Assembly: GCF_003018115.1 (NCBI RefSeq) | Contig: NZ_CP027457.1 | From: Escherichia coli | GTDB taxonomy: Bacteria > Pseudomonadota > Gammaproteobacteria > Enterobacterales > Enterobacteriaceae | Length of the DNA: 64,000 nucleotides | Reading direction: 5' to 3' (one strand) | Part shown: positions 6,431-39,415 of the stretch, piece by piece | Layout of the letters: the number at the start of each line of letters is the position of its first letter | How positions within the stretch are numbered: position 1 is the stretch's first letter | The notes under the pieces: generated by a model | What the model was told of the DNA's origin: nothing | Database searches by the model: none | What the model saw: only the letters and a program-made list of their open reading frames with translations | Position numbers and translations under genes: made by a program

Positions 6431-6436
6431 TGTCCG

Positions 6437-6862: not shown

Positions 6863-6871
6863 AGTAGAATT

Positions 6872-7080: not shown

Positions 7081-7100
7081 GTAAGAGTGAATTCACAATG

Positions 7101-7135
7101 ATGCCCGGTTGCTTTTCACAACCGGGCATTTTTTT
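7101..7135 (+). terminator. rho-independent terminator of exbBD
   Basis: hairpin atgcccggttg-cttttca-caaccgggcat followed by ttttttt; directly abuts yghA stop on the opposite strand. Confidence 0.6.
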
Positions 7136-19159: not shown

Positions 19160-21019
19160 ATGAGCAAAGGAACGACCAGCCAGGATGCCCCGTTCGGGAC
19201 ATTATTGGGCTACGCCCCAGGTGGGGTAGCAATCTACTCTTCAGATTACAGTTCTCTCGATCCGCAGGAATACGAAGATGACGCCGTATTCCGTAGCTAT
19301 ATCGACGACGAATATATGGGCCACAAATGGCAATGCGTTGAATTTGCTCGCCGTTTTCTCTTTCTGAACTACGGTGTGGTCTTTACTGACGTGGGTATGG
19401 CGTGGGAGATTTTCTCGCTGCGCTTCCTGCGTGAAGTGGTTAATGACAACATCCTGCCATTGCAGGCATTTCCTAACGGCTCGCCGCGTGCGCCGGTCGC
19501 GGGTGCGCTTCTTATCTGGGATAAAGGCGGTGAATTTAAAGACACCGGCCATGTCGCCATCATTACCCAATTGCATGGCAACAAAGTCCGTATTGCGGAA
19601 CAGAACGTGATTCATTCCCCGTTGCCGCAAGGGCAACAGTGGACGCGCGAACTGGAGATGGTGGTCGAAAACGGCTGCTATACCCTTAAAGACACTTTTG
19701 ATGACACCACCATTCTGGGCTGGATGATCCAGACGGAAGATACTGAATACAGCTTACCGCAGCCGGAAATTGCAGGCGAGCTGCTGAAAATCAGCGGAGC
19801 GCGTCTGGAAAACAAAGGCCAGTTTGACGGTAAATGGCTGGATGAAAAAGATCCGCTGCAAAACGCCTATGTGCAGGCCAACGGTCAGGTGATCAATCAG
19901 GATCCGTATCATTACTACACCATTACCGAGAGCGCCGAGCAGGAGCTGATTAAAGCCACCAACGAGCTGCACCTGATGTATCTTCACGCAACCGACAAGG
20001 TGCTGAAAGATGACAACCTGCTGGCGCTGTTCGACATTCCGAAAATCCTCTGGCCACGTTTGCGTCTCTCCTGGCAGCGTCGCCGTCACCATATGATCAC
20101 CGGTCGTATGGATTTCTGCATGGATGAGCGTGGTCTGAAGGTTTACGAGTACAACGCCGACTCCGCCTCATGTCATACCGAAGCGGGCTTGATCCTCGAA
20201 CGTTGGGCGGAGCAGGGCTATAAAGGCAACGGCTTCAATCCGGCGGAAGGGCTGATTAACGAACTGGCTGGTGCCTGGAAACACAGTCGTGCACGTCCGT
20301 TTGTCCATATCATGCAGGACAAAGATATCGAGGAAAACTATCACGCGCAGTTTATGGAGCAGGCGCTGCACCAGGCGGGCTTTGAAACGCGTATCTTGCG
20401 CGGGCTGGATGAACTGGGCTGGGATGCTGCCGGGCAACTGATTGATGGGGAAGGGCGACTGGTTAACTGCGTGTGGAAAACCTGGGCGTGGGAAACCGCG
20501 TTTGATCAGATTCGTGAAGTTAGCGACCGTGAGTTTGCTGCGGTGCCGATCCGTACCGGTCATCCGCAAAATGAAGTGCGTCTTATCGACGTATTGCTGC
20601 GCCCGGAAGTGCTGGTCTTTGAGCCGCTGTGGACGGTGATCCCCGGCAACAAAGCGATTCTGCCGATCCTCTGGTCGCTGTTCCCGCACCATCGTTACCT
20701 GCTGGATACCGATTTCACTGTTAATGATGAATTGGTGAAAACAGGTTACGCAGTGAAACCGATCGCCGGTCGCTGTGGCAGTAACATCGACCTCGTCAGC
20801 CATCATGAAGAGGTGCTGGACAAAACCAGTGGTAAATTTGCCGAGCAGAAAAACATCTATCAGCAACTGTGGTGTTTGCCGAAAGTGGACGGTAAATACA
20901 TTCAGGTATGTACCTTCACCGTTGGCGGCAACTACGGTGGGACGTGTTTGCGCGGTGATGAATCACTGGTTATTAAAAAAGAGAGTGATATTGAACCGTT
21001 AATTGTGGTGAAAGAGTAA
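19160..21019 (+). CDS. gss: bifunctional glutathionylspermidine synthetase/amidase
   Basis: 619 aa from ATG at 19160 (MSKGTTSQDAPFG...); N-terminal CHAP-like amidase region and C-terminal synthetase region. Confidence 0.95.
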   Translation: MSKGTTSQDAPFGTLLGYAPGGVAIYSSDYSSLDPQEYEDDAVFRSYIDDEYMGHKWQCVEFARRFLFLNYGVVFTDVGMAWEIFSLRFLREVVNDNILPLQAFPNGSPRAPVAGALLIWDKGGEFKDTGHVAIITQLHGNKVRIAEQNVIHSPLPQGQQWTRELEMVVENGCYTLKDTFDDTTILGWMIQTEDTEYSLPQPEIAGELLKISGARLENKGQFDGKWLDEKDPLQNAYVQANGQVINQDPYHYYTITESAEQELIKATNELHLMYLHATDKVLKDDNLLALFDIPKILWPRLRLSWQRRRHHMITGRMDFCMDERGLKVYEYNADSASCHTEAGLILERWAEQGYKGNGFNPAEGLINELAGAWKHSRARPFVHIMQDKDIEENYHAQFMEQALHQAGFETRILRGLDELGWDAAGQLIDGEGRLVNCVWKTWAWETAFDQIREVSDREFAAVPIRTGHPQNEVRLIDVLLRPEVLVFEPLWTVIPGNKAILPILWSLFPHHRYLLDTDFTVNDELVKTGYAVKPIAGRCGSNIDLVSHHEEVLDKTSGKFAEQKNIYQQLWCLPKVDGKYIQVCTFTVGGNYGGTCLRGDESLVIKKESDIEPLIVVKE

Positions 21020-21035
21020 TACATGTTGTAGCAAT

Positions 21036-21068
21036 CCCGTACTGATTATGAAGAATAGTCAGTACGGG
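21036..21068 (+). terminator. candidate terminator after gss
   Basis: perfect 10-bp inverted repeat cccgtactga ... tcagtacggg with 13-nt loop; weak U-tract. Confidence 0.35.
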
Positions 21069-21310
21069 GATTAATCAAAATATTCAATATTTATATATTC
21101 AAATATTTATTCATTTCATATGTGAATACATTAACCAGCAGAATGCCTGTGTTCTAATTATTTCTAAAGATTTTTAATGAATGCTTATTGTCTGATACAC
21201 AAGAAATAACACTCTTTTTATCGTTAAAAAATGATATTTCACTTTGCCCACACCGTTAAAGTCACTGATAATGCGTCCGTTCGTAAATTCAAAATGGCGT
21301 AATCTAATAT

Positions 21311-22810
21311 ATGCTAAATTTATTTGTTGGCCTTGATATATACACAGGGCTTTTGTTATTACTTGCTCTGGCATTTGTGTTGTTCTACGAAGCAATCAAT
21401 GGTTTTCATGACACGGCGAATGCGGTGGCAACCGTTATTTATACTCGTGCCATGCAACCACAACTTGCTGTGGTGATGGCGGCATTTTTTAACTTTTTTG
21501 GCGTGTTATTGGGCGGACTTAGCGTTGCCTATGCCATTGTCCATATGTTACCAACCGATTTGTTGCTGAATATGGGGTCAACCCACGGCCTGGCGATGGT
21601 CTTTTCCATGCTGCTGGCGGCGATTATCTGGAACCTGGGAACGTGGTTCTTCGGTTTACCGGCCTCCAGTTCGCACACCTTGATTGGTGCGATTATCGGC
21701 ATCGGTTTAACCAACGCGCTGTTAACCGGCTCATCGGTGATGGATGCGTTAAACCTGCGTGAAGTGACCAAAATTTTCTCCTCGCTGATTGTTTCCCCTA
21801 TCGTCGGCCTGGTCATTGCGGGAGGCCTGATATTCCTGCTGCGACGCTACTGGAGCGGAACGAAAAAGCGTGACCGTATTCACCGCATTCCGGAAGATCG
21901 CAAAAAGAAAAAAGGCAAACGTAAGCCGCCATTCTGGACGCGTATTGCGCTGATTGTTTCCGCTGCGGGCGTGGCGTTTTCACACGGCGCTAACGACGGG
22001 CAGAAAGGGATCGGCCTGGTGATGCTGGTACTGGTGGGGATTGCCCCTGCTGGCTTCGTCGTCAATATGAACGCGTCCGGCTATGAAATTACCCGTACCC
22101 GCGATGCCGTCACCAACTTCGAACACTACCTGCAACAGCATCCTGAACTGCCGCAGAAGTTGATTACGATGGAACCTCCATTGCCTGCGGCATCTACTGA
22201 TAGCGCGCAAGTGACGGAGTTTCACTGTCATCCGGCAAATACCTTTGATGCGATTGCGCGCGTTAAAACGATGCTGCCAGGCAATATGGAAAGTTACGAG
22301 CCGTTAAGCGTAAGTCAGCGCAGCCAGCTGCGCCGCATTATGCTGTGCATCTCTGATACCTCCGCGAAGCTGGCGAAACTGCCAGACGTCAGTAAAGAAG
22401 ACCAGAACCTGCTGAAAAAACTGCGCAGCGATATGTTAAGCACCATTGAGTACGCTCCGGTGTGGATCATCATGGCGGTAGCACTGGCGCTCGGCATTGG
22501 CACCATGATTGGCTGGCGTCGTGTTGCGATGACCATCGGTGAGAAGATTGGTAAGCGCGGCATGACGTATGCGCAAGGCATGGCGGCACAAATGACGGCG
22601 GCAGTGTCTATCGGTCTTGCCAGTTATATTGGGATGCCCGTCTCTACAACACACGTACTCTCATCTGCAGTTGCAGGGACGATGGTGGTGGACGGCGGTG
22701 GGTTACAGCGTAAAACGGTAACCAGCATCCTGATGGCGTGGGTATTTACTTTACCGGCGGCGATTTTTCTTTCTGGTGGGCTGTACTGGATAGCATTGCA
22801 GTTGATTTAA
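21311..22810 (+). CDS. pitB: low-affinity inorganic phosphate transporter
   Basis: 499-aa polytopic membrane ORF with PiT-family [10 protein letters not shown] motif. Confidence 0.93.
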
Positions 22811-22819
22811 CCTTCCTGA

Positions 22820-22856
22820 AAATGCCCGGTCCTGGCGATCGGGCATTTCCATTTTT
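22820..22856. terminator. terminator between convergent pitB and yghT
   Basis: hairpin aaatgcccg-N11-cgggcattt followed by ccattttt. Confidence 0.5.
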
Positions 22857-22858
22857 GG

Positions 22859-23551
22859 CTAGTGATAACCACGCGCGGTCATAAAATCCGTAATCGCTTT
22901 TTCTGCATCAACCAACACCTGTTCCAGTGGCTGATTGGCATCGATATCAACCAGTTGTGCACCACCAAAGGTTAACTGTGGCGTTATGGCAATCTTCCTC
23001 GCCAGCGATTCCCGTTTATGGTCGGGTTTACGCGCGCAGGCCACGTCTAGATCGACATTGAGTTTGATGACCAGATCAGGCTTATGGCTCGCCATCCAGT
23101 GAAACGCTTTACGTTCCTGGCTTGCCAGCCATGAGACAAAACGACCACCTTCAACGTTAGGTGGGAACACCGTACCATCGTAAGCGCCAGGAATTTGGTC
23201 CTGAGGATAACGGTCGGTTAGAACAATTAACCCGCGACGACGACAGGCAAGCATATGACGAAAGCGCAGTAAGCGACGGGCGACAAACGCTGTAATTACC
23301 AGCGCCGGAACTGGTCCTGGCAATTTTTTTGCTGTTTTCACCTGATTTCGTTCAATTGTTTTATGTAAGGATTTTCCCATCAACGGTAATTTTGTCACTG
23401 CACGACCGACATTTCCGGCTTGTTTTCCTAAATGAACTCTTTCGGCAGCACCATATTTTTCGACAACGGTAATGAGATGTTCACACACCGTTGACTTGCC
23501 AGAACCATCGCTACCAATAACGGCAATTAATGGAGGTGTTATTGACTGCAT
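22859..23551 (-). CDS. yghT: P-loop NTPase/kinase-like protein (YghR/S/T paralog family)
   Basis: 230 aa; Walker [10 protein letters not shown]; DRYPQ motif; paralogous to the two downstream ORFs. Confidence 0.85.
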
Positions 23552-23724
23552 GAATATATCCTTAAATTTAAATATCCATCCAAAATATTTATTTGGTTAA
23601 TATGTTTTTATGAAAGCGTAATTCAGGTCAATGTCACAATTAACCATTGTCACAATAAGGTTGAACGGATATTCTGAGCACGGACCACGTAATATTCAAT
23701 ACATTATTTACTGCCGGGTTTTTC

Positions 23725-24438
23725 GTGAATCAACGTAATATGTCAATAATTAATTCCACGCCAGTGCGTGTTATTGCCATTGTAGGATGTGATGGTTCAG
23801 GTAAATCGACCCTCACGGCAAGCCTGGTAAATGAACTGGCAGCAAGAATGCCAACAGAACGCATTTATCTCGGGCAATCGTCCGGGCGAATTGGCGAATG
23901 GATTTCACAGCTCCCTGTTATTGGCGCACCTTTTGGGCGTTATCTGCGAAGTAAAGCGGCACATGTGCACGAAAAGCCCTCAACACCGCCTGGCAATATT
24001 ACTGCGCTGGTTATCTATCTGCTTTTCTGCTGGCGGGCGTACAAGTTTCGCAAAATGTTGTGTAGAAGCCAGCAAGGCCATCTGCTCATCACCGACCGCT
24101 ACCCGCAGGTTGAAGTGCCGGGTTTTCGCTTTGATGGCCCGCAATTGGCAAAAACCACGGGCGGTAACGGTTGGATAAAAATGTTAAGGCAGCGCGAGTT
24201 GAAGCTGTACCAATGGATGGCGTCTTATTTACCCGTATTGTTGATTCGTCTTGGCATTGATGAACAAACCGCGTTTGCGCGTAAACCTGACCACCAACTG
24301 GCAGCGTTACAGGAAAAAATCGCCGTTACGCCGCAATTGACATTCAATGGCGCAAAGATCCTTGAACTGGATGGTCGGCAACCAGCCGATGAAATTCTGC
24401 AAGCGTCACTACGCGCAATTCACGCCGCGCTTTCCTGA
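23725..24438 (+). CDS. yghS: P-loop NTPase/kinase-like protein (YghR/S/T paralog family)
   Basis: 237 aa from GTG start (alternative ATG at 23740); Walker A GCDGSGKST; DRYPQ; ARKPDH motif shared with paralogs. Confidence 0.85.
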   Translation: MNQRNMSIINSTPVRVIAIVGCDGSGKSTLTASLVNELAARMPTERIYLGQSSGRIGEWISQLPVIGAPFGRYLRSKAAHVHEKPSTPPGNITALVIYLLFCWRAYKFRKMLCRSQQGHLLITDRYPQVEVPGFRFDGPQLAKTTGGNGWIKMLRQRELKLYQWMASYLPVLLIRLGIDEQTAFARKPDHQLAALQEKIAVTPQLTFNGAKILELDGRQPADEILQASLRAIHAALS

Positions 24439-24469
24439 TCACCAAAATGGATAGGGGATGATTTAACGA

Positions 24470-25228
24470 ATGGATGCACTACAAACACAAACTGTTATTA
24501 GTACAACCGCGCCACAGCCCAACTACATTCCGGGGCTGATTGCGGTGGTCGGGTGTGATGGCACCGGTAAATCCACACTGACCACCGACCTAGTGAAATC
24601 GCTGCAACAACACTGGCAAACCGAGCGGCGCTATCTGGGGCTGCTCTCCGGCGAAGACGGCGACAAAATCAAACGATTGCCGTTGGTTGGCGTCTGGCTG
24701 GAACGGCGACTGGCGGCCAAATCCTCGAAAACCCAAAGCATGAAAACCAAATCTCCGGCGCTATGGGCGGCGGTGATTATGTACTGCTTCTCGCTGCGAA
24801 GAATGGCGAATCTACGCAAGGTTCAGCGACTGGCGCAAAGTGGCGTTCTGGTGGTCAGCGATCGCTTCCCGCAGGCTGAAATTTCGGGCTTTTATTATGA
24901 CGGACCGGGGATTGGCGTCGAACGTGCGACCGGGAAAATCAGCATGTTTCTGGCGCAGCGCGAACGGCGTTTATACCAACAAATGGCGCAATATCGCCCG
25001 GAATTAATTATTCGCCTGGGCATTGATATTGAGACTGCCATCTCCCGCAAGCCTGACCATGACTATGCCGAGCTGCAGGACAAAATCGGCGTCATGTCGA
25101 CGATTGGCTATAACGGCACAAAAATTCTTGAGATTGATTCCAGAGCGCCCTACAGCGAAGTGCTGGAACAGGCACAGAAGGCGGTTTCTCTGGTTGCCAT
25201 CGCTTCTGACCGCCGAAGTTTAACTTAA
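24470..25228 (+). CDS. yghR: P-loop NTPase/kinase-like protein (YghR/S/T paralog family)
   Basis: 252 aa; Walker A GCDGTGKST; DRFPQ; SRKPDH. Confidence 0.85.
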   Translation: MDALQTQTVISTTAPQPNYIPGLIAVVGCDGTGKSTLTTDLVKSLQQHWQTERRYLGLLSGEDGDKIKRLPLVGVWLERRLAAKSSKTQSMKTKSPALWAAVIMYCFSLRRMANLRKVQRLAQSGVLVVSDRFPQAEISGFYYDGPGIGVERATGKISMFLAQRERRLYQQMAQYRPELIIRLGIDIETAISRKPDHDYAELQDKIGVMSTIGYNGTKILEIDSRAPYSEVLEQAQKAVSLVAIASDRRSLT

Positions 25229-25273
25229 GGCTGGCGGGATACTTTTTACTATCAACGATAAGGTCAGGCTGAA

Positions 25274-26623
25274 TTGGCGGGTTTTAACATCAAACATTGG
25301 TTTGCAGATGGCGCGTTTCGCACCATTATTCGCAATAGCGCCTGGTTAGGCTCCAGTAATGTCGTGAGCGCCTTGCTGGGGCTGTTGGCGCTCTCGTGTG
25401 CCGGTAAAGGGATGACGCCCGCCATGTTTGGCGTACTGGTGATTGTGCAATCGTACGCCAAGTCGATCAGCGATTTTATTAAGTTTCAGACATGGCAGCT
25501 GGTGGTTCAGTACGGAACGCCAGCCTTGACCAACAATAATCCGCAGCAATTTCGCAATGTCGTCTCATTTTCCTTCTCGCTGGATATCGTCAGCGGCGCG
25601 GTGGCGATTGTCGGCGGCATTGCCTTACTGCCATTCCTTTCCCATTCATTAGGTCTGGATGACCAAAGCTTTTGGCTGGCGGCGCTGTATTGCACGCTCA
25701 TTCCTTCAATGGCTTCCTCCACGCCGACCGGCATTCTGCGTGCGGTAGATCGCTTTGATTTGATTGCTGTACAGCAGGCGACGAAACCTTTTCTGCGCGC
25801 AGCGGGGAGCGTCGCAGCCTGGTATTTTGACTTTGGTTTTGCGGGTTTTGTTATTGCCTGGTACGTGTCGAATCTGGTTGGCGGCACCATGTACTGGTGG
25901 TTTGCCGCGCGCGAATTACGCCGCAGAAATATCCATAACGCCTTCAAATTGAATCTGTTTGAGTCTGCCCGACACATTAAAGGCGCGTGGAGTTTTGTCT
26001 GGTCAACCAACATTGCCCACTCCATCTGGTCGGCGCGTAACTCGTGCAGCACAGTGTTGGTGGGGATCGTGTTAGGACCCGCTGCCGCCGGGTTATTTAA
26101 AATCGCCATGACATTCTTCGACGCCGCCGGAACGCCAGCGGGTTTGCTGGGTAAAAGTTTTTACCCAGAGGTGATGCGTTTAGATCCGCGCACCACCAGA
26201 CCGTGGTTGTTAGGCGTGAAGTCCGGTTTACTGGCGGGCGGAATCGGTATTCTGGTGGCGCTCGCGGTGTTGATCGTCGGCAAGCCGCTCATTTCGCTGG
26301 TATTTGGCGTTAAGTATCTCGAAGCGTATGACCTGATTCAGGTGATGCTGGGCGCAATTGTGATCTCGATGCTGGGCTTCCCGCAGGAGTCATTGCTATT
26401 GATGGCGGGAAAACAGCGCGCTTTTCTCGTGGCGCAAACCATCGCCTCAATCGGCTACATCGTATTGCTGTTCATGTTCTGTCATCTGTTTGGCGTGCTG
26501 GGGGCTGCATTTGCTTACTTCGTTGGGCAATGTCTGGATGTGGTGCTCTCGTTAATTCCAACCTTAAAGGCATTTTTTCAGCGCCATTCCTTGCTTTATA
26601 ACGCAGCCGGAGAGAAATCCTGA
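25274..26623 (+). CDS. yghQ: MOP/Wzx-like polytopic membrane flippase-family protein
   Basis: 449-codon hydrophobic ORF from TTG at 25274 (true start may be the internal Met at about 25412); recognised as YghQ-like; stop overlaps the next ORF start (ATGA). Confidence 0.8.
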   Translation: MAGFNIKHWFADGAFRTIIRNSAWLGSSNVVSALLGLLALSCAGKGMTPAMFGVLVIVQSYAKSISDFIKFQTWQLVVQYGTPALTNNNPQQFRNVVSFSFSLDIVSGAVAIVGGIALLPFLSHSLGLDDQSFWLAALYCTLIPSMASSTPTGILRAVDRFDLIAVQQATKPFLRAAGSVAAWYFDFGFAGFVIAWYVSNLVGGTMYWWFAARELRRRNIHNAFKLNLFESARHIKGAWSFVWSTNIAHSIWSARNSCSTVLVGIVLGPAAAGLFKIAMTFFDAAGTPAGLLGKSFYPEVMRLDPRTTRPWLLGVKSGLLAGGIGILVALAVLIVGKPLISLVFGVKYLEAYDLIQVMLGAIVISMLGFPQESLLLMAGKQRAFLVAQTIASIGYIVLLFMFCHLFGVLGAAFAYFVGQCLDVVLSLIPTLKAFFQRHSLLYNAAGEKS

Positions 26624-27447
26624 TGATGAGAAAATATTTCCCGCTTGAGGCGAGCGAGCGTCTATTTGTTGCGATTGAAGAAGATGATGTCGTTGATGCA
26701 CAGGTTAGTTTGCCGCCGACTATTGCACTAAGTTGTACCACCGAAATCATTCATGATAATTACGCGTTATGCCTGCAATTCTGGCTCAATGGCGTTAATC
26801 GTCAGGAATTACTGCGTTTAGTTCGCAAACAAGCCAAAGGCGATGAGCTGACTGCTGATGAGCGCAAACAATTTAAATACATGCGAGCGCGCTACAAGCA
26901 CCTGCGTTTTGCGCAACGGCTGTATTTAAAGAAGCATCAGGCCGGATTTTTATTCGGCAAAACGACCGTTTTTCTGGGACGTTTTCAGGACGGATTTCGT
27001 AACGGTAAGAAAAATATTGTGTCGTATTACGGCAACCTGTTACGAATTTATTTAAGCTCTCCGGTCTGGTCGTTGGTGAACTATTCATTACGCCATAGCC
27101 AGTTAGAAAGCGTAAGCGGTTTTATTGCCTATCGGCAAAAGCAAATGCATACCCTGAAAGAGATTATTGCCAAACCGCGACTAACCGGCAGGGAATTTCA
27201 TGATGTGCGAAAAATCATCAGCCAGCAGGTTTCTTATTACGACACCTTAAGATCGCTTGATCCTGAAAATAAAGAGGCGTTACAGATTTCCCGTTTCCTC
27301 GCCGCCATTAATGGCCTGATGGGGGATAAACACGACGACATGGTAGCGGATGATATGGAAAACCGCCAGTCGTATGATGCACCGGTGGCGCTGGATAGCG
27401 ATATTCGCCAGCGCTTAGAGCTGCTGATTTCGCGTTTTCCGCTATAA
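26623..27447 (+). CDS. hypothetical protein, basic, no recognisable motif
   Basis: 274-aa ORF translationally coupled to yghQ (ATGA overlap); no signal peptide or TM segment apparent. Confidence 0.6.
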   Translation: MMRKYFPLEASERLFVAIEEDDVVDAQVSLPPTIALSCTTEIIHDNYALCLQFWLNGVNRQELLRLVRKQAKGDELTADERKQFKYMRARYKHLRFAQRLYLKKHQAGFLFGKTTVFLGRFQDGFRNGKKNIVSYYGNLLRIYLSSPVWSLVNYSLRHSQLESVSGFIAYRQKQMHTLKEIIAKPRLTGREFHDVRKIISQQVSYYDTLRSLDPENKEALQISRFLAAINGLMGDKHDDMVADDMENRQSYDAPVALDSDIRQRLELLISRFPL

Positions 27448-27455
27448 CCGGAGCA

Positions 27456-28019
27456 ATGATGTCATCTCGTTTGATTATTGCGCTGATTATCATGCTCTTA
27501 GCCCCGGGTGTGCAGGCACACAATTTCGTCACTGGCAAAACGGTTACCCCTGTTTATATTCAGGAAGGCGGCGAGCTGCTTCTGAATAGCGACGACGAAA
27601 TTCACTACCAAAAGTGGAACAGCACACAATTGGCGGGAAAAGTCCGCATTATCCAGTATATCGCCGGGCGTAAGTCGGCGAAGAAAAAGAACTCACTGTT
27701 AATTAAAGCGGTTGAAGCGGCAAACTTTCCGCAGGATCGTTTTCAGCCCACCACCATTGTGAACACCGATGATGCCATCTTTGGTACTGGCTATTTTGTT
27801 GTTGGCAAAATCGAAAAAAATAAACGCCGCTATCCGTGGGCGCAATTCGTTATCGACGGCAATGGACAGGGACGCGTTGCCTGGCGCTTGCCGGAGCAGA
27901 GTTCAACCATTCTGGTGCTGGATAAAGCCGGGCAAATTCAGTGGGCAAAGGACGGCAGCCTGACGCCGGAAGAGGTAGATCATGTCATTGCGCTGGCGCA
28001 GAAACTGATCAATGAATAA
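27456..28019 (+). CDS. secreted/periplasmic protein, YtfJ-family-like
   Basis: 187 aa; N-terminal signal peptide (MMSSRLIIALIIMLLAPGVQA/HN); resembles E. coli YtfJ as recalled (TTIVNTDDAI...YPW..F..D.NG, QWAKDG.LTPEEV). Confidence 0.6.
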   Translation: MMSSRLIIALIIMLLAPGVQAHNFVTGKTVTPVYIQEGGELLLNSDDEIHYQKWNSTQLAGKVRIIQYIAGRKSAKKKNSLLIKAVEAANFPQDRFQPTTIVNTDDAIFGTGYFVVGKIEKNKRRYPWAQFVIDGNGQGRVAWRLPEQSSTILVLDKAGQIQWAKDGSLTPEEVDHVIALAQKLINE

Positions 28020-28049
28020 AAAATTCAAAGGATTGAGGGCGTTAGTGAG

Positions 28050-29120
28050 ATGAAGCTGGTTGAACACTACATCATGCGTGGTACGCGCCGTCTGGTGCTG
28101 ATTATCGTCGGTTTTCTGATCTTTATTTTCGCCAGCTACTCCGCACAGCGTTATCTGACCGAAGCGGCAAATGGGACATTAGCTCTTGATGTTGTGCTGG
28201 ATATCGTTTTCTACAAAGTGCTGATTGCACTGGAGATGTTGTTACCTGTTGGTCTGTATGTGTCAGTTGGCGTGACGCTAGGGCAGATGTATACCGACTC
28301 GGAAATTACCGCTATCTCTGCGGCGGGGGGCAGTCCGGGACGCTTGTACAAAGCCGTTCTTTATCTGGCGATACCGCTAAGTATTTTTGTCACCCTTCTG
28401 TCGATGTATGGTCGTCCGTGGGCTTATGCGCAGATTTATCAACTGGAGCAGCAGTCGCAGTCGGAGCTGGATGTTCGCCAGTTGCGGGCAAAGAAATTTA
28501 ACACTAACGATAACGGACGAATGATCCTTTCGCAGACGGTTGATCAGGATAATAATCGCCTGACTGACGCGCTGATTTATACTTCTACTGCCAATCGAAC
28601 CCGCATTTTCCGCGCCCGTTCGGTTGATGTGGTTGACCCATCACCCGAGAAACCGACCGTTATGTTGCACAACGGCACTGCCTATCTTCTCGATCATCAG
28701 GGTCGTGACGACAACGAACAGATCTACCGTAATCTGCAATTACATCTGAATCCGCTGGATCAAAGCCCTAACGTCAAACGCAAAGCAAAATCGGTCACGG
28801 AGCTGGCGCGCTCCGCCTTTCCTGCCGATCATGCCGAACTGCAATGGCGACAAAGCCGTGGCCTGACAGCATTGTTGATGGCGCTGCTGGCCATTTCATT
28901 AAGTCGGGTAAAACCGCGGCAGGGGCGATTTTCAACGTTATTGCCACTGACGTTGCTGTTTATTGCCATTTTTTATGGCGGCGACGTCTGCCGTACGCTG
29001 GTGGCTAACGGCGCGATTCCTCTCATTCCTGGTTTGTGGTTAGTGCCCGGACTCATGCTAATGGGCCTGCTGATGCTGGTTGCACGCGACTTCACTTTGC
29101 TGCAGAAATTTTCCCGATGA
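28050..29120 (+). CDS. LptF-like permease (YjgP/YjgQ family)
   Basis: 356 aa; N-terminal TM bundle then soluble domain then C-terminal TMs; LGQMYTDSEITAISAAG matches the LptF signature region as recalled (LGKLYTESEITVMHACG). Confidence 0.75.
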   Translation: MKLVEHYIMRGTRRLVLIIVGFLIFIFASYSAQRYLTEAANGTLALDVVLDIVFYKVLIALEMLLPVGLYVSVGVTLGQMYTDSEITAISAAGGSPGRLYKAVLYLAIPLSIFVTLLSMYGRPWAYAQIYQLEQQSQSELDVRQLRAKKFNTNDNGRMILSQTVDQDNNRLTDALIYTSTANRTRIFRARSVDVVDPSPEKPTVMLHNGTAYLLDHQGRDDNEQIYRNLQLHLNPLDQSPNVKRKAKSVTELARSAFPADHAELQWRQSRGLTALLMALLAISLSRVKPRQGRFSTLLPLTLLFIAIFYGGDVCRTLVANGAIPLIPGLWLVPGLMLMGLLMLVARDFTLLQKFSR

Positions 29121-30196
29121 ATGTTTTCAGTCGCTATTTAATCCGTCATCTCTTTCTCGGTTTTGCCGCCGCCGCAGGGCTATTGCTGCCGCTTTTTACC
29201 ACCTTCAACCTGATTAACGAACTGGATGATGTCAGCCCGGGCGGTTATCGCTGGACTCAGGCGGTGCTGGTGGTGCTAATGACCTTACCGCGCACACTGG
29301 TCGAACTTTCGCCGTTTATCGCCTTATTGGGAGGGATTGTCGGCCTGGGGCAGTTATCGAAAAACAGTGAGCTTACCGCCATTCGCAGCATGGGGTTTTC
29401 TATCTTCCGTATTGCACTGGTGGCGCTGGTTGCCGGGATATTGTGGACTGTTTCGTTAGGCGCGATAGATGAGTGGGTAGCGTCGCCGTTGCAGCAACAG
29501 GCGCTGCAAATCAAATCGACCGCCACTGCGTTGGGGGAGGACGATGATATTACCGGCAATATGCTTTGGGCCAGGCGCGGTAATGAATTTGTAACGGTGA
29601 AATCGCTGAACGAGCAGGGCCAGCCGGTGGGCGTGGAGATATTTCATTATCGCGACGATCTCTCGCTCGAATCCTACATTTATGCACGCAGTGCCACCAT
29701 TGAAGACGACAAAACGTGGATCCTGCATGGTGTGAATCATAAAAAATGGCTGAATGGCAAAGAAACGCTGGAAACATTAGATAATCTTGCCTGGCAATCG
29801 GCCTTCACCAGTATGGATCTTGAAGAGTTATCAATGCCGGGCAATACTTTTTCTGTCCGTCAGCTTAATCATTACATCCATTATTTGCAGGAAACCGGGC
29901 AACCCAGCAGCGAATACCGCCTTGCACTGTGGGAAAAACTGGGGCAACCCATCCTGACCCTGGCGATGATTTTGCTGGCTGTGCCGTTTACCTTTAGTGC
30001 CCCGCGCTCGCCAGGGATGGGTAGCCGTCTCGCTGTAGGTGTCATCGTTGGCTTACTCACCTGGATCAGCTATCAAATCATGGTCAATCTGGGATTGCTA
30101 TTTGCGTTGAGCGCACCTGTTACCGCGCTCGGTTTACCGATAGCGTTTGTGCTGGTGGCGTTGAGCCTGGTGTATTGGTATGACAGACAACATTAA
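29117..30196 (+). CDS. LptG-like permease (YjgP/YjgQ family)
   Basis: 359 aa from ATG at 29117 (MNVFSRYLIRH...), overlapping upstream stop by 4 nt; NSELTAIRSMGFS resembles LptG RSELVVMQASGF. Confidence 0.75.
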   Translation: MNVFSRYLIRHLFLGFAAAAGLLLPLFTTFNLINELDDVSPGGYRWTQAVLVVLMTLPRTLVELSPFIALLGGIVGLGQLSKNSELTAIRSMGFSIFRIALVALVAGILWTVSLGAIDEWVASPLQQQALQIKSTATALGEDDDITGNMLWARRGNEFVTVKSLNEQGQPVGVEIFHYRDDLSLESYIYARSATIEDDKTWILHGVNHKKWLNGKETLETLDNLAWQSAFTSMDLEELSMPGNTFSVRQLNHYIHYLQETGQPSSEYRLALWEKLGQPILTLAMILLAVPFTFSAPRSPGMGSRLAVGVIVGLLTWISYQIMVNLGLLFALSAPVTALGLPIAFVLVALSLVYWYDRQH

Positions 30197-30230
30197 ACCC
30201 GCCGTGGCGCAACACCACAGCGGGCTCACA

Positions 30231-31403
30231 TTACTGCTTCAGAGTAGCGAACGCTTGAATGATGGCATCAATTTGCTCACGACTGTGGGCAGCGTTTACG
30301 CTACAGCGCAGCAGCGTGATGCCTGCAGGCGCGGCAGGTGGCAGGATAAGATTCACATAAACGCCCAGCGAAATAAGCTCGCGCCAGATGCGTAAACCTT
30401 CCTCTTTCGAACCGATTATTACCGGCACTACCGGGCTAATATGTGAACTTAACTCATAACCCAGTTTTTGCAGACCGTCATACAGATGGTTGGCGTTATC
30501 CATCAGCTTTTGCCGCAGCTCTGGTTGTGTGGCAATGGTTCTTAACGACGAGCGCACGGTCGCAATGCAGGACGGAGAAGGAGAGGCGGTAAAAATATAC
30601 GGGCGGCTGCCGTAGCGCAGCACTTCCATCGCTTCCGAACCGACAGCAAAACCGCCAATCGAGGCCAGACTTTTACTGAAGGTACCAACGATAATATCCA
30701 CATCATCTTCAACGCCAACGGCTTCAGCCAGTCCGCGCCCCGTTGCGCCTAACACGCCAAACGAATGCGCTTCATCGACAATCAAATAACCACCGAGACG
30801 ACGTTTGATATCAACAATTTCCGCCAGCGGCGCAACGTCACCGAGCATGCTGTAGATGCCCTCAACGATGATAATCGCCTCTTTCGCCCGTTCACCGAGG
30901 CGAACCATGCGCCGTTCCAGATCTTTAGCATCGTTATGGCGGAAACGAATAATTTCCGCGCCACCGAGAGAACAGGCGTCATAAATACTGGCGTGGCTGT
31001 CGGCATCCAGTAACACCACGGCGTTATGGTCGGCAAGTGCGCTGATGACGCCTAAATTAGCGGTATAACCGGTTGAAAAAACGATAGCGGTAGGGCGATT
31101 GAAAAACTCGGCAATCTCTTTCTCTAACGCCAGGTGCGGCGCATAACTGCCGTTTGCCATACGAGAACCGGTGGTGCCGGTGCCTTGGGCCGCTAACGCT
31201 GTCTGACCTTCGGCGATGGCATCATGATTAAAGGTTAAACCGAGGTAATTATTGGTCCCGGCCAGAATCACTTTTTTATTGCCGATCCGGCCTTCGGTGG
31301 CGGAATACACTTCATCAATACAGGTGCCAAACGGTGTTAACCCATTGTCACTAAATTGCAGTCGCTCGCCAGCAAGGCGCGCATATTTATCATATAGCCC
31401 CAT
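30231..31403 (-). CDS. alpha-oxoamine synthase family PLP enzyme, serine palmitoyltransferase-like
   Basis: 390 aa; class-II aminotransferase fold with PLP-lysine motif GTFSKSLASIGGF; encoded immediately downstream of a dedicated ACP. Confidence 0.8.
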   Translation of the reverse strand: MGLYDKYARLAGERLQFSDNGLTPFGTCIDEVYSATEGRIGNKKVILAGTNNYLGLTFNHDAIAEGQTALAAQGTGTTGSRMANGSYAPHLALEKEIAEFFNRPTAIVFSTGYTANLGVISALADHNAVVLLDADSHASIYDACSLGGAEIIRFRHNDAKDLERRMVRLGERAKEAIIIVEGIYSMLGDVAPLAEIVDIKRRLGGYLIVDEAHSFGVLGATGRGLAEAVGVEDDVDIIVGTFSKSLASIGGFAVGSEAMEVLRYGSRPYIFTASPSPSCIATVRSSLRTIATQPELRQKLMDNANHLYDGLQKLGYELSSHISPVVPVIIGSKEEGLRIWRELISLGVYVNLILPPAAPAGITLLRCSVNAAHSREQIDAIIQAFATLKQ

Positions 31404-31651
31404 TATTTATTCTCCAGCCATGGAAGTAGAGTTTCCATTAATTGCGCAGGGGTTTTGACATCCAGCAGAATATTAATAGGAATGGAAATATCGAATCTGT
31501 CTTCCAGCATCATTAAGAGATCCATCACTTTGATCGACTCCAGGCCAAGATCGTTGACGAGATCGCTGTCGGGCTTAATTTCCACACCGTTTTCGACCAA
31601 ATCCTGTAAACAGGAAAGGATGTAATCCATTACTATTTCACGATTTACCAT
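31403..31651 (-). CDS. acyl carrier protein
   Basis: 82 aa, acidic; phosphopantetheine-site motif DLGLESI; shares a boundary nucleotide with the downstream synthase gene. Confidence 0.75.
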   Translation of the reverse strand: MVNREIVMDYILSCLQDLVENGVEIKPDSDLVNDLGLESIKVMDLLMMLEDRFDISIPINILLDVKTPAQLMETLLPWLENK

Positions 31652-31682
31652 AGAAACGTTAACACACCTTTAAACAAGACAA

Positions 31683-32597
31683 TCAAAATAGCCCGTTGCG
31701 TAATGCGTGTTCCAGGCTAATCCCGGGAAACCAATTAATATCTTCAGAAATACGGTTATTACTTGCCGACCAGTCGGCGTGGGTTAATTCACGAATTTTC
31801 GAGCGGGTCAGCATAGGTTCTTTACCTGCCAGGCGGCTCAACGCGGTACTGATATCCGCAAGGCAGGTGAGTACCGGCAGAGGAATGCCAACCATTCGCA
31901 CGGAACCACAACGGGCGTCGGCGGCAAGTTGCTGTACGCGTTGCCAGTCATAGCCGCCAGCGACGCCATCGCATAATTCATAGGTTTGCGTCTGTACAGT
32001 TTCGGCGCTTAACCACTGACCCACTGCTTGCGCGAAATCGGTGACGTGCAGGAAAGAGAGCTGTGTATCTGGCGCACCAAGTCGTGGCAGCAGGCCGCGC
32101 AGCATCCAGTCAAACAGCGGTTTTAACTCTTTATCGCCGGGGCCATACACGGCTGTCGGGCGAAAAACGCCCAGCGTAATTTTGTCAGCCATTGCAGTCA
32201 GCCGTTGTTCGGCGACGTATTTGGAATTTGCGTACCAGGAGAGTTCGGGATGGCGCGCCGCCAGCGAAGAGATAAACAGAAAACGTTGGCAAAAACCGCT
32301 CTCTTTTGCCGCCTGCATCAGGCGCAGACTGCCGTCAACGTTACAGCGGGTGAAAATCTCTTCTTTGTGCCCGCGCACTTGTCCGGCGCAATGAACCACC
32401 GCGCTGGCTCCGGCAACCAGTTCGCTAAGCGAATGTGTATCTTCCAGCGAACCGCGCACCCAGGTGAGATTATCATTGACGTGAGCGCGGGCAGTACGCG
32501 TCAATGCGCGAACGTGAAAGCCGCGGGCGAGCAGGTTATTGATAATATATTTACCGATAAACCCGGTAGCGCCCGTCACCGCGACAGTTTGATTCAT
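31683..32597 (-). CDS. NAD(P)-dependent epimerase/dehydratase-family SDR (candidate keto-reductase)
   Basis: 304 aa; N-terminal Rossmann motif VTGATGFIGK; start overlaps stop of upstream acyl-ACP synthetase (ATGA). Confidence 0.8.
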   Translation of the reverse strand: MNQTVAVTGATGFIGKYIINNLLARGFHVRALTRTARAHVNDNLTWVRGSLEDTHSLSELVAGASAVVHCAGQVRGHKEEIFTRCNVDGSLRLMQAAKESGFCQRFLFISSLAARHPELSWYANSKYVAEQRLTAMADKITLGVFRPTAVYGPGDKELKPLFDWMLRGLLPRLGAPDTQLSFLHVTDFAQAVGQWLSAETVQTQTYELCDGVAGGYDWQRVQQLAADARCGSVRMVGIPLPVLTCLADISTALSRLAGKEPMLTRSKIRELTHADWSASNNRISEDINWFPGISLEHALRNGLF

Positions 32598-34327
32598 GCC
32601 AGGGATTCCTGCACATGAAGGCTTGCAGCATAAGCCTTCTGATAACGTTTTTTCGCTTCCGCACGGGCAGGCTTGCCGGAGGACGTTCGGGGAATGCTGT
32701 GGGGCGGCAACAGATCGATAGCCGCGGTCACGCCAAATTCGCTTTGGATCCGTGCTGCCAGCGCGTGGATAAGCTGCCCGCGACGTTCTTCATCGCTGAT
32801 CCGACACTGGATCTGCAAAATGATTTTTTCCTGGGCGGTAACAAAAGCAATCGCATCGCCAGAATGAATTTCCGGTTCCTGTTCCGCTATATATTCAATA
32901 TCCTGCGGCCAGATATTACGGCCACGAATAATAATCAGATCTTTAATGCGTCCGGTGACATACAGATAACCGTCCAGCAGATAACCGAGGTCGCCAGTGT
33001 CTAACCAGCCCGTCGCGGCAATCTCGTCTTGCGAAGCCTGGTCGCCAAAGTAACCGCTCATCAGACTGGGACCGGAGATGCAAATATGGCCTACCACACG
33101 TTCCGCGACCGGCATACCTGCTTCATTGCGGATTTCAATACCATGTTCCGGCAACGCTTTGCCGCAGTTGACGAAAGTCGATACGGCGCGTGTCTCTGCA
33201 CCCGGCGCGACGGCTTTACCCTGATATTCGAGGATGTCGCGATCCACTTCGTTAACCACAACCCCGGAGGCTTCATCAGAGAAGCTGACAGCCAGCGCAT
33301 TTTCTGCCAGTCCGTAGCACGGCATGAAAGTTTTATTGTCAAAGTTAACCTGACGGAAACATTCAGCGAATTGATGGAGTTGTTCTGCGGAGATGGGTTC
33401 TGCACCAATACCAGCGACGCGCCAGCAGGAAAGATCCAGTTCAGCGAGATCTTTTTCATTCACGCGGCGCTGGCACAATTCATAGCCAAACGGCGGCGCA
33501 ACGGAAACGGTGCCGCGATTTTTACTGATCAATTTAAGCCATTGCAGAGGACGCATGGCAAAATCCTGAGTGCGCAAATAATCTACTGAAAGTTGCGTGG
33601 CGACGGGGGTCAGGAGAAAGCCGACCAGTCCCATATCATGGTAGAAAGGCAGCCAGGAGACGCAGCGGTCGCCAGGGCGTAATTTAATGCCATCGTGGCT
33701 TATGGCGCGTAGATTAGCCATCACTTCGCGGTGAGTGATAATGACGCCACGGGGAAAACGGGTGCTGCCGGAGGTGTACTGGAGGTAGGCGATATCGTTC
33801 GGAACTGGACGCTGGAGCGCAACATCGGCTTCCGGTAATGCCTTAAACCAGGCGTGGCTTAAAACATGTAATTCGGGGTTGTTGTTATGCGTCGCGGCAT
33901 TGACCAGCGGTAACCACTCATCACCAGTGATAATGGCTGCGGGCTGGCAACTTGCCAGTAAACCCTGCAGTTTGGCGCTCCAGGAATCCCGCTGACCGAC
34001 GCCCATTGGAATCGCCAATGGTACGGCAACTAATCCAGCATACTGACAGGCAAAAAATGCCTCGACAAACCCGCTACTGGTTTCGGCAATCAGCGCCACG
34101 CGATCGCCTTTTTTCAGGTTTAGCGATAACAACCGCTTCGCACCAGCTTCGGCACGCGCTTTTAACGTCTGATATTCCAGTTGATCTTCAAGTTGGCAAC
34201 GTCTGTCATAAAAATTCATTCCAGCGCTACTCAGAGCGGCGTAGTCCAAAGCATCAACCAGCGTTGGAAAATCGGCATAGCGCATAGGTAGGGAATGCGT
34301 AAAGATTTTATTAGACATATACACCAC
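32594..34327 (-). CDS. fatty acyl-AMP ligase / acyl-ACP synthetase (adenylate-forming enzyme)
   Basis: 577 aa; AMP-binding core motif YTSGSTRFPRGV and downstream GYG/TGD adenylation motifs; first gene of a 4-gene minus-strand operon. Confidence 0.8.
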   Translation of the reverse strand: MVYMSNKIFTHSLPMRYADFPTLVDALDYAALSSAGMNFYDRRCQLEDQLEYQTLKARAEAGAKRLLSLNLKKGDRVALIAETSSGFVEAFFACQYAGLVAVPLAIPMGVGQRDSWSAKLQGLLASCQPAAIITGDEWLPLVNAATHNNNPELHVLSHAWFKALPEADVALQRPVPNDIAYLQYTSGSTRFPRGVIITHREVMANLRAISHDGIKLRPGDRCVSWLPFYHDMGLVGFLLTPVATQLSVDYLRTQDFAMRPLQWLKLISKNRGTVSVAPPFGYELCQRRVNEKDLAELDLSCWRVAGIGAEPISAEQLHQFAECFRQVNFDNKTFMPCYGLAENALAVSFSDEASGVVVNEVDRDILEYQGKAVAPGAETRAVSTFVNCGKALPEHGIEIRNEAGMPVAERVVGHICISGPSLMSGYFGDQASQDEIAATGWLDTGDLGYLLDGYLYVTGRIKDLIIIRGRNIWPQDIEYIAEQEPEIHSGDAIAFVTAQEKIILQIQCRISDEERRGQLIHALAARIQSEFGVTAAIDLLPPHSIPRTSSGKPARAEAKKRYQKAYAASLHVQESLA

Positions 34328-34689
34328 GAAAAAATTGGATATCCAAAATAAAATGACAATAATGCGGTGGATTATATAGGCATAAAAGATAAATGAGATA
34401 GTATTTTCATCAGTGTGAAAATGAACATTGATTTAAATAATGAGTTTAAGTTTTTTTGTTTTTATTGTGAATGATATTTAATTTATGAATATATTAAGAA
34501 GAAGCCTTGTCCGGTCGCCTTAAATCGACAAAAGGCATTGTGGCGCTTCTGTGTAGTCGCTGACCTTATCGTAATCATTAATAAATACTATTTATTCGTC
34601 GTTTGTATTCATTGGGTTGATTATTAAGGTGCCGTTCGTTGCTGTTGCAACCTGTTTGTCACCGTTAATTATTTGTTACCCACAGAACT
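34328..34689. promoter_or_regulatory. AT-rich divergent control region (lipid operon / yghO)
   Basis: 362-bp intergenic region of markedly low GC between divergently oriented genes. Confidence 0.45.
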
Positions 34690-35832
34690 ATGGAATGCGA
34701 TCTGCTGATGATTAAAATTGAAAAAGTAATAAATAAAAACGACTTAAAGGCATTTATCGCTTTTCCGTCATCACTTTATCCCGACGATCCAAACTGGATA
34801 CCCCCTTTATTCATTGAACGCAACGAGCATTTGTCTGCGAAAAATCCGGGGACGGACCATATCATCTGGCAGGCGTGGGTGGCAAAAAAAGCGGGGCAGA
34901 TAGTTGGGCGTATTACCGCGCAAATAGATACCTTGCACCGCGAGCGTTACGGCAAAGATACCGGTCATTTCGGCATGATTGACGCCATTGATGATCCGCA
35001 GGTTTTTGCCGCGTTGTTTGGCGCAGCGGAAGCGTGGTTGAAGTCCCAAGGTGCAAGTAAGATCAGCGGTCCTTTCAGCCTGAATATCAATCAGGAAAGC
35101 GGATTACTGATTGAAGGTTTTGACACACCACCCTGTGCGATGATGCCACACGGCAAACCGTGGTATGCCGCGCATATTGAACAACTGGGTTATCACAAAG
35201 GCATTGATTTACTGGCGTGGTGGATGCAGCGAACCGATCTCACTTTCTCTCCGGCGCTAAAAAAACTGATGGATCAGGTGCGCAAAAAGGTGACCATTCG
35301 CTGCATCAATCGCCAGCGGTTTGCCGAAGAGATGCAGATCCTGCGTGAGATTTTCAACTCTGGCTGGCAACACAACTGGGGATTTGTGCCGTTTACCGAA
35401 CATGAATTCGCGACCATGGGCGATCAACTTAAATATCTGGTGCCGGACGATATGATCTACATCGCTGAGATTGATTCTGCACCCTGCGCGTTTATTGTCG
35501 GCTTGCCGAACATCAACGAGGCGATTGCCGATCTGAACGGATCGCTCTTTCCCTTCGGCTGGGCAAAATTGCTGTGGCGTTTGAAAGTCAGCGGTGTGCG
35601 AACTGCGCGAGTACCGCTGATGGGCGTGCGCGACGAGTATCAGTTCAGCCGCATCGGCCCGGTGATTGCGCTGTTATTGATTGAAGCCTTACGCGATCCG
35701 TTTGCCCGCCGGAAGATCGATGCGCTGGAGATGTCATGGATCCTCGAAACCAATACAGGCATGAATAACATGCTGGAACGCATTGGGGCGGAGCCGTACA
35801 AGCGTTACCGATTGTATGAAAAGCAGATTTAA
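34690..35832 (+). CDS. yghO: GNAT-superfamily-like acyltransferase (full-length YghO)
   Basis: 380-codon ORF (start possibly at internal Met, 34708); position corresponds to yghO next to glcC; acyltransferase assignment is tentative. Confidence 0.65.
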   Translation: MECDLLMIKIEKVINKNDLKAFIAFPSSLYPDDPNWIPPLFIERNEHLSAKNPGTDHIIWQAWVAKKAGQIVGRITAQIDTLHRERYGKDTGHFGMIDAIDDPQVFAALFGAAEAWLKSQGASKISGPFSLNINQESGLLIEGFDTPPCAMMPHGKPWYAAHIEQLGYHKGIDLLAWWMQRTDLTFSPALKKLMDQVRKKVTIRCINRQRFAEEMQILREIFNSGWQHNWGFVPFTEHEFATMGDQLKYLVPDDMIYIAEIDSAPCAFIVGLPNINEAIADLNGSLFPFGWAKLLWRLKVSGVRTARVPLMGVRDEYQFSRIGPVIALLLIEALRDPFARRKIDALEMSWILETNTGMNNMLERIGAEPYKRYRLYEKQI

Positions 35833-35838
35833 TACCAG

Positions 35839-36603: not shown

Positions 36604-36853
36604 TCCCGGACCTCGTGCACAGGTAGGACCAATTTTTCTGTACTTAACTCGCAAAACACGCACATCACGTAAGTGATTATGTTACATCAATTTAACATTG
36701 AGTTAACCAAGGCAAGGTCACAGAGCTGGAAAAAAAATGGTCTGACCGGTAGCTAAAGAGATAGACGAAAACGAAAAGCCCGCTTAATAACTGTTCACAG
36801 AAGCAGCGCGCAAAAATCAGCTGCCACACAACACAACTAAGCGAAGCCTACTC
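36604..36853. promoter_or_regulatory. glcC / glcDEFGBA divergent promoter region
   Basis: 250-bp intergenic region between divergent regulator and operon; sites not resolved. Confidence 0.45.
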
Positions 36854-39405: not shown

Positions 39406-39415
39406 GGAGCAGGCT

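Follow-up and report, generated by a model that had tools for sequence, protein, structure and literature searches.

Within a window of 64,000 nucleotides from Escherichia coli (RefSeq assembly GCF_003018115.1, contig NZ_CP027457.1), three neighbouring genes, yghT, yghS and yghR, code for paralogous P-loop proteins at the edge of a locus for ceramide synthesis. We propose, with about an even chance of being right, that these proteins are cooperating cytoplasmic ATP-dependent kinases, which phosphorylate the ceramide head group before it is flipped by YghQ and exported by LptF2/LptG2. The broader assignment of the trio to a bacterial sphingolipid pathway and not to nucleotide metabolism is, in our judgement, just as evenly balanced. 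The proposal draws on features seen in this analysis, namely the paralogy of the three proteins, their fold, the retention of catalytic residues, the ancient origin of the trio and its gene linkage. All positions of genes and intergenic regions are given in the numbering of the whole window.

Ceramide synthesis in bacteria has been worked out only recently and the head-group chemistry is known for Caulobacter alone (CpgA-D). E. coli, many Enterobacterales, Xanthomonadales and Betaproteobacteria carry ceramide genes without the Cpg enzymes, and in the literature searched no product was reported for them. Searches on yghT/S/R, on yghO with sphingolipid and on thymidylate kinase with serine palmitoyltransferase did not return a functional study. 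YghT, YghS and YghR, together with a CHAD-fold protein encoded nearby, form a concrete candidate enzyme set for the head-group step and would give a pathway context to three E. coli y-genes. Which head group enterobacterial sphingolipids carry, and which kinase acts on it, thus become directly testable questions, of relevance to the bacterial sphingolipid and the E. coli y-gene fields. Should gut E. coli indeed carry a phosphorylated or oligophosphorylated ceramide in the outer membrane, this would matter for polymyxin sensitivity, envelope stability and the sensing of bacterial sphingolipids by the host.

Paralogy, fold and conservation of the trio

The three genes occupy the following positions:

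22859-23551, minus strand: yghT, 230 amino acids (aa), P-loop kinase of the thymidylate kinase fold, paralogue T
23725-24438, plus strand: yghS, 237 aa, GTG start, paralogue S (S clade of 64 orthologues)
24470-25228, plus strand: yghR, 252 aa, paralogue R (R clade of 65 orthologues, sister to S), name taken from K-12

Bases 21000-40000 of the window are 100% identical to several chromosomes of enterotoxigenic E. coli (ETEC), and most of the stretch was found in 4042 of 5426 complete E. coli genomes. The RefSeq annotation of a 100%-identical ETEC genome gives at the same three coordinates yghT, yghS and an unnamed 'hypothetical protein', which corresponds to K-12 yghR. Pairwise BLASTP gave 37% identity for YghT/YghS (E 2e-54), 34% for YghT/YghR (E 3e-47) and 44% for YghS/YghR (E 1e-62). 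This similarity is far above chance and the three proteins are clear paralogues; with identities of 34-44%, the first-pass annotation of this DNA, which had reported three paralogous open reading frames (ORFs) of 230-252 aa at 22859-25228, was right in both position and size.

All three proteins share the Walker A pattern GxDGxGKST, the last of the copies as listed above reading GCDGTGKST, and a second motif, DRYPQ in YghT and YghS and DRFPQ in YghR. The P-loop and DR(Y/F)PQ were therefore read correctly at first pass, whereas ARKPDH, given there as common to the trio, occurs in YghT and YghS only; YghR has SRKPDH, so that the shared form is (A/S)RKPDH.

Comparison with known structures revealed a P-loop kinase fold with a LID, like that of solved thymidylate kinases, and the nearest structural relatives of the trio all phosphorylate nucleotides. 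The second-best match of YghT is 2plr, the Sulfolobus tokodaii homologue of the polyphosphate kinase PPK3; with the family profile, canonical Tmk is found at E 4e-10 and 2plr at E 2e-4. NCBIfam and Pfam searches detected neither an ABC signature nor an end-to-end ABC match in the trio, and LpxK was absent among the close structural matches. YghT, YghS and YghR have the fold of the thymidylate kinase superfamily and an ABC ATPase is excluded, in agreement with the earlier impression that the motifs recall thymidylate or nucleoside monophosphate (NMP) kinases. An anti-phage defence module was also considered and rejected, the PADLOC matches being of P-loop length only.

It is extremely improbable that the trio represents ordinary extra copies of thymidylate (dTMP) kinase, as the RefSeq product names of yghT and yghS would have it. 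The best NCBIfam model is indeed the dTMP kinase TIGR00041, but at 24.6, 21.6 and 32.0 bits (YghT, YghS and YghR as listed) the proteins stay far under its curated cut-off of 83.25, while the canonical E. coli Tmk reaches 234.3 bits. The remaining NCBIfam matches are confined to the P-loop, the independent E values for Pfam PF02223 are 0.05 or worse, and a Pfam search with YghT gave no match below E 1e-3. Canonical tmk is located in the mltG-tmk-holB cluster, away from the context of the trio, which exists in three copies tightly linked to lipid genes. On these family scores, and on the comparison with canonical Tmk, a true dTMP kinase identity was rejected; judged by sequence, the three are not housekeeping dTMP kinases.

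For a wider view, a scan using one genome per species yielded 248 relatives, and the best 79 loci were taken with a 10 kb flank on each side; with the annotated twin strain of the window they make up the 80 loci referred to below. In the 79 loci 220 ORFs match the family, and 61 of these loci contain exactly three such ORFs. When each ORF was assigned to its nearest E. coli paralogue, exactly one T, one S and one R were present in 60 of the 80 loci. The neighbour-joining tree resolved three pure clades (86 T, 64 S and 65 R), with S and R as sisters. The loci come from many Enterobacterales, Xanthomonadales (Dyella, Rhodanobacter, Luteibacter), Halieaceae and Betaproteobacteria (Methylotenera, Rhodocyclaceae), and Foldseek against AFDB found relatives in the classical sphingolipid producers Sphingobium (three near-consecutive accessions), Novosphingobium, Zymomonas, Gluconobacter and Acetobacter. 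Judging from these clades, the triplication is ancient. Several Halieaceae and Lysobacterales loci (L050, L052, L071, L074, L076, L078) have a second copy of the yghT clade in the pattern R-S-T-T, a further duplication of the T lineage.

In the 215 full-length orthologues, 31 positions carry one residue common to all three clades at a conservation of at least 90%, including D15, K19, R93, D113, R114, P116, Q117, D125, E146, R174, K175, D177 and H178, and only five conserved positions are clade-specific. Such a small number argues against three different specificities, and hence against the diversified substrate specificity which the triplication had suggested to the first-pass annotation. GxDGxGKST, DR(Y/F) and R174, the putative LID arginine by alignment, are kept in at least 98% of each clade, and the DRx arginine R114 is conserved in 100% of T, S and R. 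By these residues all three paralogues look catalytically competent, which sets the trio apart from systems with one dead regulatory paralogue.

The acceptor side of the site both resembles and departs from Tmk. In the alignment with Tmk, the thymine-stacking Phe and the Arg are matched by Phe/Leu89 and R93. The Tmk segment 'DLSTQAYQ' after DRx, which we take to contact dTMP and line the acceptor site, is replaced in the trio family by an invariant PQxExPGxxDGP. There is also an insertion of about 40 residues after strand 2, and invariant E146 and KPDH are additional to Tmk.

These features bear on the idea that the three proteins act on nucleotides or nucleotide derivatives, converting an NMP to a diphosphate or phosphorylating a nucleotide-linked head-group donor, and so supply an activated precursor while leaving the lipid untouched. 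The catalogue of structural relatives speaks for it, as do the retained acidic residue of the P-loop, the DRx arginine and the Phe and Arg at thymine-contacting positions; the Caulobacter pathway uses nucleotide-activated intermediates, e.g. CDP-phosphoglycerate. The replaced segment after DRx speaks against it, neither a nucleotidyltransferase nor a CDP-alcohol transferase that could take up such a donor is encoded in the E. coli locus, and three conserved paralogues for one soluble precursor are hard to rationalise. We regard such a role as quite unlikely.

Linkage to ceramide genes

In the RefSeq annotation of the twin strain the genes follow in the order yghU, gss, pitB, yghT (minus strand), yghS (plus), yghR (plus), yghQ ('lipopolysaccharide biosynthesis protein'), a hypothetical gene, a YtfJ-family gene and lptF and lptG paralogues; then, on the opposite strand, genes for serine palmitoyltransferase (spt), an acyl carrier protein, an NAD-dependent epimerase-family protein and a fatty acyl-AMP ligase, and finally yghO and glcC. 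From yghS-yghR the genes continue co-directionally, with short gaps or overlaps, into yghQ, an ORF of 274 aa, the YtfJ-family gene and the lptF/lptG paralogues. This order agrees with the first-pass description of yghT as divergent from yghS-yghR, and of the latter pair as co-oriented with and upstream of the flippase and permease genes.

In E. coli B, spt, acpR, aasR, epi/cerR and yghO have been investigated as dihydroceramide genes (PMC9386255), and the LptF/LptG paralogues of the Caulobacter sphingolipid locus are implicated in sphingolipid export, for which they bind the housekeeping LptB (bioRxiv 10.64898/2026.04.12.717747). On our proposal, Spt, AcpR, AasR, CerR and YghO would make dihydroceramide at the inner membrane. 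YghT, YghS and YghR, probably as a hetero-oligomer with the basic CHAD-fold protein, would then phosphorylate the ceramide head group, either at one or more hydroxyls or by successive addition onto an existing phosphate in the manner of NMP kinases. The MOP flippase YghQ would flip the anionic product, and LptF2/LptG2 would draw it out in the direction of the outer membrane. In other lineages PAP2 phosphatases may remove its phosphate or phosphates, or an LmtA-like enzyme may methylate them, in parallel to the phosphate chemistry of lipid A. In this scheme the inferred elements are the action as kinases, the lipid as substrate, how many phosphates are added and where, the complex and the role of the CHAD-like protein.

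Co-occurrence was counted by comparing the proteins of the window with the ORFs of the 80 loci, and since many contigs are short the counts are lower bounds. We found yghT in 80 loci, yghS in 67, yghR in 65, the 274-aa protein in 59, spt in 51, acpR and cerR in 50 each, yghQ in 47, the YtfJ-family gene in 41 (mostly Enterobacterales), lptF2/lptG2 in about 40, aasR in 35 and yghO in 28. Gene order varies among genera, and the divergence of yghT from yghS-yghR stays. Being kept beside ceramide genes in many genera, the trio is the best candidate for addition of the head-group phosphate; no other candidate head-group enzyme was found in the E. coli locus. The first-pass annotation had offered head-group phosphorylation of the locus product as speculation, and its interpretation as a whole is supported in part.

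Clustering the ORFs of non-enterobacterial loci brought out further recurrent partners. In 23 loci yghT is closely followed by a gene for a secreted PAP2 phosphatase (PF01569, E 9e-15), 16 loci encode a membrane PAP2 protein (SepP/PgpB/LpxF-like), in 11 an LmtA-family gene immediately precedes yghT (E 2e-30 to the model for lipid A 1-phosphate O-methyltransferase) and 15 encode an OlsC/LpxO-like acyl hydroxylase; GT4 glycosyltransferases and an LptA-like protein recur as well. The lipid-phosphate neighbours outside Enterobacterales, among which the PAP2 genes after yghT number one or two, are in loci L046-L080 (e.g. L071 9276-9821, L077 16545-17231, L080 138-878). Homologues of the PAP2, LmtA-like and OlsC/LpxO-like proteins edit the phosphates and acyl chains of lipid A in lipopolysaccharide biology.

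Two known enzymes are comparable with the trio in proposed job and not in ancestry. CpgB of Caulobacter crescentus is a bacterial ceramide kinase of the DAGK/LCB5 type with a GGDG motif (PMC10331486), and the job proposed for the trio is the one it has, the first phosphorylation of ceramide within a sphingolipid locus containing LptF2/G2 and a MOP flippase. Homology was rejected, as the fold of CpgB is unrelated to that of P-loop kinases and the trio has a Walker A P-loop and a Tmk fold; an ORF of the diacylglycerol (DAG) kinase type with GGDG was found in only 2 of the 80 E. coli-type loci. In one locus, L025 (labelled as a Pseudomonas metagenome-assembled genome), a DAG-kinase/CpgB-like ORF of 353 aa with GGDGS at 6392-7453 stands between lptG2 and yghS, so both kinase types can share a locus. 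The second enzyme, the lipid A 4'-kinase LpxK, offers the same logic of a cytoplasmic P-loop kinase which phosphorylates an envelope lipid before flipping and Lpt-type export, and the editing by LpxE, LpxF and LmtA has its parallel in the PAP2 and LmtA-family genes adjoining yghT in many loci; the trio differs from LpxK in its ceramide-based lipid and in using three kinases instead of one.

Two observations bear on the breadth of the acceptor. Loci such as that of Nitrotoga have yghT, the CHAD-like gene, PAP2, a GT4 gene and a NodU-like carbamoyltransferase and no spt within reach of the 10 kb flanks, and CpgB and YghT-like proteins seem to coexist in some Sphingomonadales. The acceptor could accordingly be broader than ceramide.

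The position of yghS-yghR directly upstream of yghQ also invites another explanation, that the proteins are not kinases but ATPases or regulators, which as ATP-driven accessories load or energise YghQ or LptF2/G2. It is favoured by the lack of an LptB paralogue in the locus and by distant relatives that are fused to a MOP flippase (P0221) or lie directly after a Wzx gene. ATP-driven transport is not known for MOP flippases, which counts against it. So do the invariant arginine clamp of DRx and the arginine of the LID, as usually found where a phosphoryl group passes to a second substrate, as well as the missing ABC signature and full-length ABC match. Since, in addition, LptF2/G2 of Caulobacter use the housekeeping LptB, the missing LptF2/G2 ATPase was rejected as the leading explanation of the trio, and an ATPase or regulatory function altogether appears highly doubtful.

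One locus of the set, L028, labelled as the alphaproteobacterium Martelella alba, has the gene order of enterobacteria, and its proteins are 64-78% identical to those of E. coli across the locus, which suggests contamination, mislabelling or recent transfer.

The CHAD-fold protein and phosphate transfer

The 274-aa protein encoded after yghQ gave no Pfam match even at E 10, nothing in an NCBIfam search and no match among PDB sequences with a profile of 28 sequences, and comparison of its structure model revealed the CHAD helical-bundle fold. With no solved relative found by the sequence profile, the CHAD likeness is structural only. The isoelectric point of the protein is 9.4, and the invariant basic and histidine residues of its family (R60, R88, K92, H93, R95, H105, H193, R196, H237) are compatible with polyphosphate binding, CHAD domains having been described as modules that bind polyphosphate (bioRxiv 10.1101/567040). 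Its gene often stands beside yghT even where there is no spt inside 10 kb.

Natural fusions point in the direction of a complex. In the library of representatives at 50% identity we noticed S-R (P0121) and T-R (P0029, P0122) fusions, and the alphaproteobacterium Oecophyllibacter has a T-R fusion that directly adjoins homologues of the 274-aa gene, with a yghQ homologue nearby. Such fusions are a classical sign of physical cooperation and give a hint of it here, with the reservation that an isolated metagenomic fusion may be an artefact of assembly.

In more distant relatives (E about 1e-30 to 1e-46) the fusion partner is a MOP flippase (P0221), a GT4 glycosyltransferase (P0259) or an N-terminal domain of 260 aa. 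The last group is large and comprises proteins of about 500 aa (P0161, P0168, P0171; L081 7223-8731); a Pfam search gave no match for the 260-aa domain, which has a nucleotidyltransferase-reminiscent motif GE(T/K)D(L/M/V)DLLV (e.g. GETDLDLLVD). The 274-aa protein, when compared with this domain, showed no similarity to it. P0221 combines flippase, 260-aa domain and kinase in a single chain, and the fused relative in L081 comes directly after a Wzx gene, in a Wzx/Wzy polysaccharide locus with sulfation genes. The fusions and the Wzx-adjacent relative tie the wider kinase family to lipid-linked envelope glycoconjugates in general.

The closest precedent of the trio is PPK3 of Sulfolobus acidocaldarius (Saci_2019/Saci_2020), where two 'thymidylate kinase' paralogues form a heteromeric polyphosphate kinase and are encoded with PPX, SixA and a CHAD protein (PMC12995831). 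Both systems have several paralogues misannotated as dTMP kinases, encoded together and adjoining a CHAD-type protein; both have the dTMP kinase fold with a conserved ATP site, a hetero-oligomer either shown or predicted, and a chemistry of phosphate-to-phosphate transfer. The trio of E. coli would thus indicate a second, independent recruitment of thymidylate kinase paralogues with a CHAD protein, after the archaeal one.

From this likeness it might be supposed that the trio itself is a PPK3-like enzyme, which together with the CHAD-fold protein makes polyphosphate from ATP or regenerates nucleoside triphosphates from polyphosphate, and so supplies phosphate or energy, or else handles polyphosphate at the membrane. 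We consider this unlikely. PPK3 consists of one active and one inactive subunit and needs the regulatory one, which lacks the DRx arginine, whereas all three proteins of the trio keep every catalytic residue; their family profile is nearer to canonical Tmk than to 2plr. The PPK3 operon has PPX and SixA and the window has neither gene; the conserved partners of the trio are ceramide synthesis, flippase and Lpt genes, with no polyphosphate genes among them, and the CHAD likeness in this locus is at the level of fold only. According to the PPK3 preprint, E. coli already has PPK1, and its authors call bacterial homologues of PPK3 few, in Acidobacteriota and 'Candidatus' organisms.

The same chemistry could also operate on the lipid. 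In an extended form of the ceramide kinase proposal the trio, acting sequentially or as a hetero-oligomer, would build a di-, tri- or longer oligophosphate head group on ceramide while the CHAD-fold protein holds the chain; the NMP-kinase-type arginine clamp and the CHAD partner leave room for it. The resulting lipid-anchored polyphosphate, made by PPK3-like chemistry, would be flipped by the MOP protein, exported by the Lpt proteins and would replace or complement lipid A phosphates in the outer membrane. MOP flippases usually move diphosphate-linked lipids. We nevertheless hold this extended form to be doubtful.

Locus map, regulation and distribution

The other features of the locus are as follows:

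22820-22848, no strand: hairpin terminator between convergent pitB and yghT, 12-bp stem followed by a T-run
23552-23724, no strand: divergent yghT/yghS intergenic region, 173 bp, low G+C
25274-26623, plus strand: yghQ, membrane protein of the MOP (Wzx-like) flippase family, 45 bp after yghR; NCBIfam match weak, E 7e-9
26623-27447, plus strand: 274-aa protein, unannotated, CHAD-like all-helical fold; start overlaps the yghQ stop
27456-28019, plus strand: YtfJ-family gene (TIGR01626, 214.8 bits, cut-off 151); N-terminal signal-like stretch, as read from the sequence
28050-29120, plus strand: lptF2, LptF paralogue (RefSeq annotation)
29117-30196, plus strand: lptG2, LptG paralogue, end of the co-directional string
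30194-30228, no strand: strong hairpin directly 3' of lptG2
30231-31403, minus strand: spt, serine palmitoyltransferase (RefSeq); E. coli B orthologue ECD_02854 characterised (PMC9386255)
31403-31651, minus strand: acpR, specialised acyl carrier protein (RefSeq; PMC9386255)
31683-32597, minus strand: cerR/epi, NAD-dependent reductase of ceramide synthesis (RefSeq; PMC9386255)
32594-34285, minus strand: aasR, acyl-ACP synthetase (fatty acyl-AMP ligase), intact, translated without internal stop
34690-35832, plus strand: yghO, N-acyltransferase, bacterial ceramide synthase candidate (RefSeq), listed as 'aca' (yghO/ECD_02850) in PMC9386255

The gene aasR, intact in the window, has an internal stop in a near-identical strain (NZ_LR882990), where RefSeq marks it as a pseudogene.

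Region 23552-23724 presumably carries the promoters of both yghT and yghS. It contains one sigma-70-like match (23647-23675, plus strand), and the promoter scan gave no more promoter-like sites than shuffled sequence; the two flanking hairpins alone stand out. In K-12, an FlhDC binding peak was reported in the divergent yghS/yghT intergenic region by in vitro genomic systematic evolution of ligands by exponential enrichment (SELEX; PMC9962212).

Of the 5426 complete E. coli genomes, 4604 have the trio and 4066 the lipid genes downstream of it; about 10%, K-12 included, have the trio without lipid genes. In K-12 MG1655 (L084, 6147-7341) an IS5 element (insH9) has taken the place of the 3' part of yghQ, the genes up to and including aasR, and the start of yghO, equivalent to about 26300-34800 of the window, which leaves yghQ truncated and yghRST orphaned. 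The K-12 trio on its own is a derived deletion remnant and no instance of independent conservation. Because the rest of the locus is deleted there, work on K-12 has given no function for YghT, YghS and YghR.

The phosphate transporter gene pitB (21311-22810, plus strand) is convergent with yghT, and the two are kept as neighbours in 11 loci (L002-L011, L018) from Escherichia, Pseudocitrobacter, Citrobacter and Hafnia, for which coincidence and a link to phosphate supply are both possible. Finally, the G+C content dips to 0.41-0.45, against about 0.53 around, at 20500-22000, 23000-24500 and 34000-35000, and these dips coincide with the gss-pitB and yghT-yghS intergenic regions and the region upstream of yghO.

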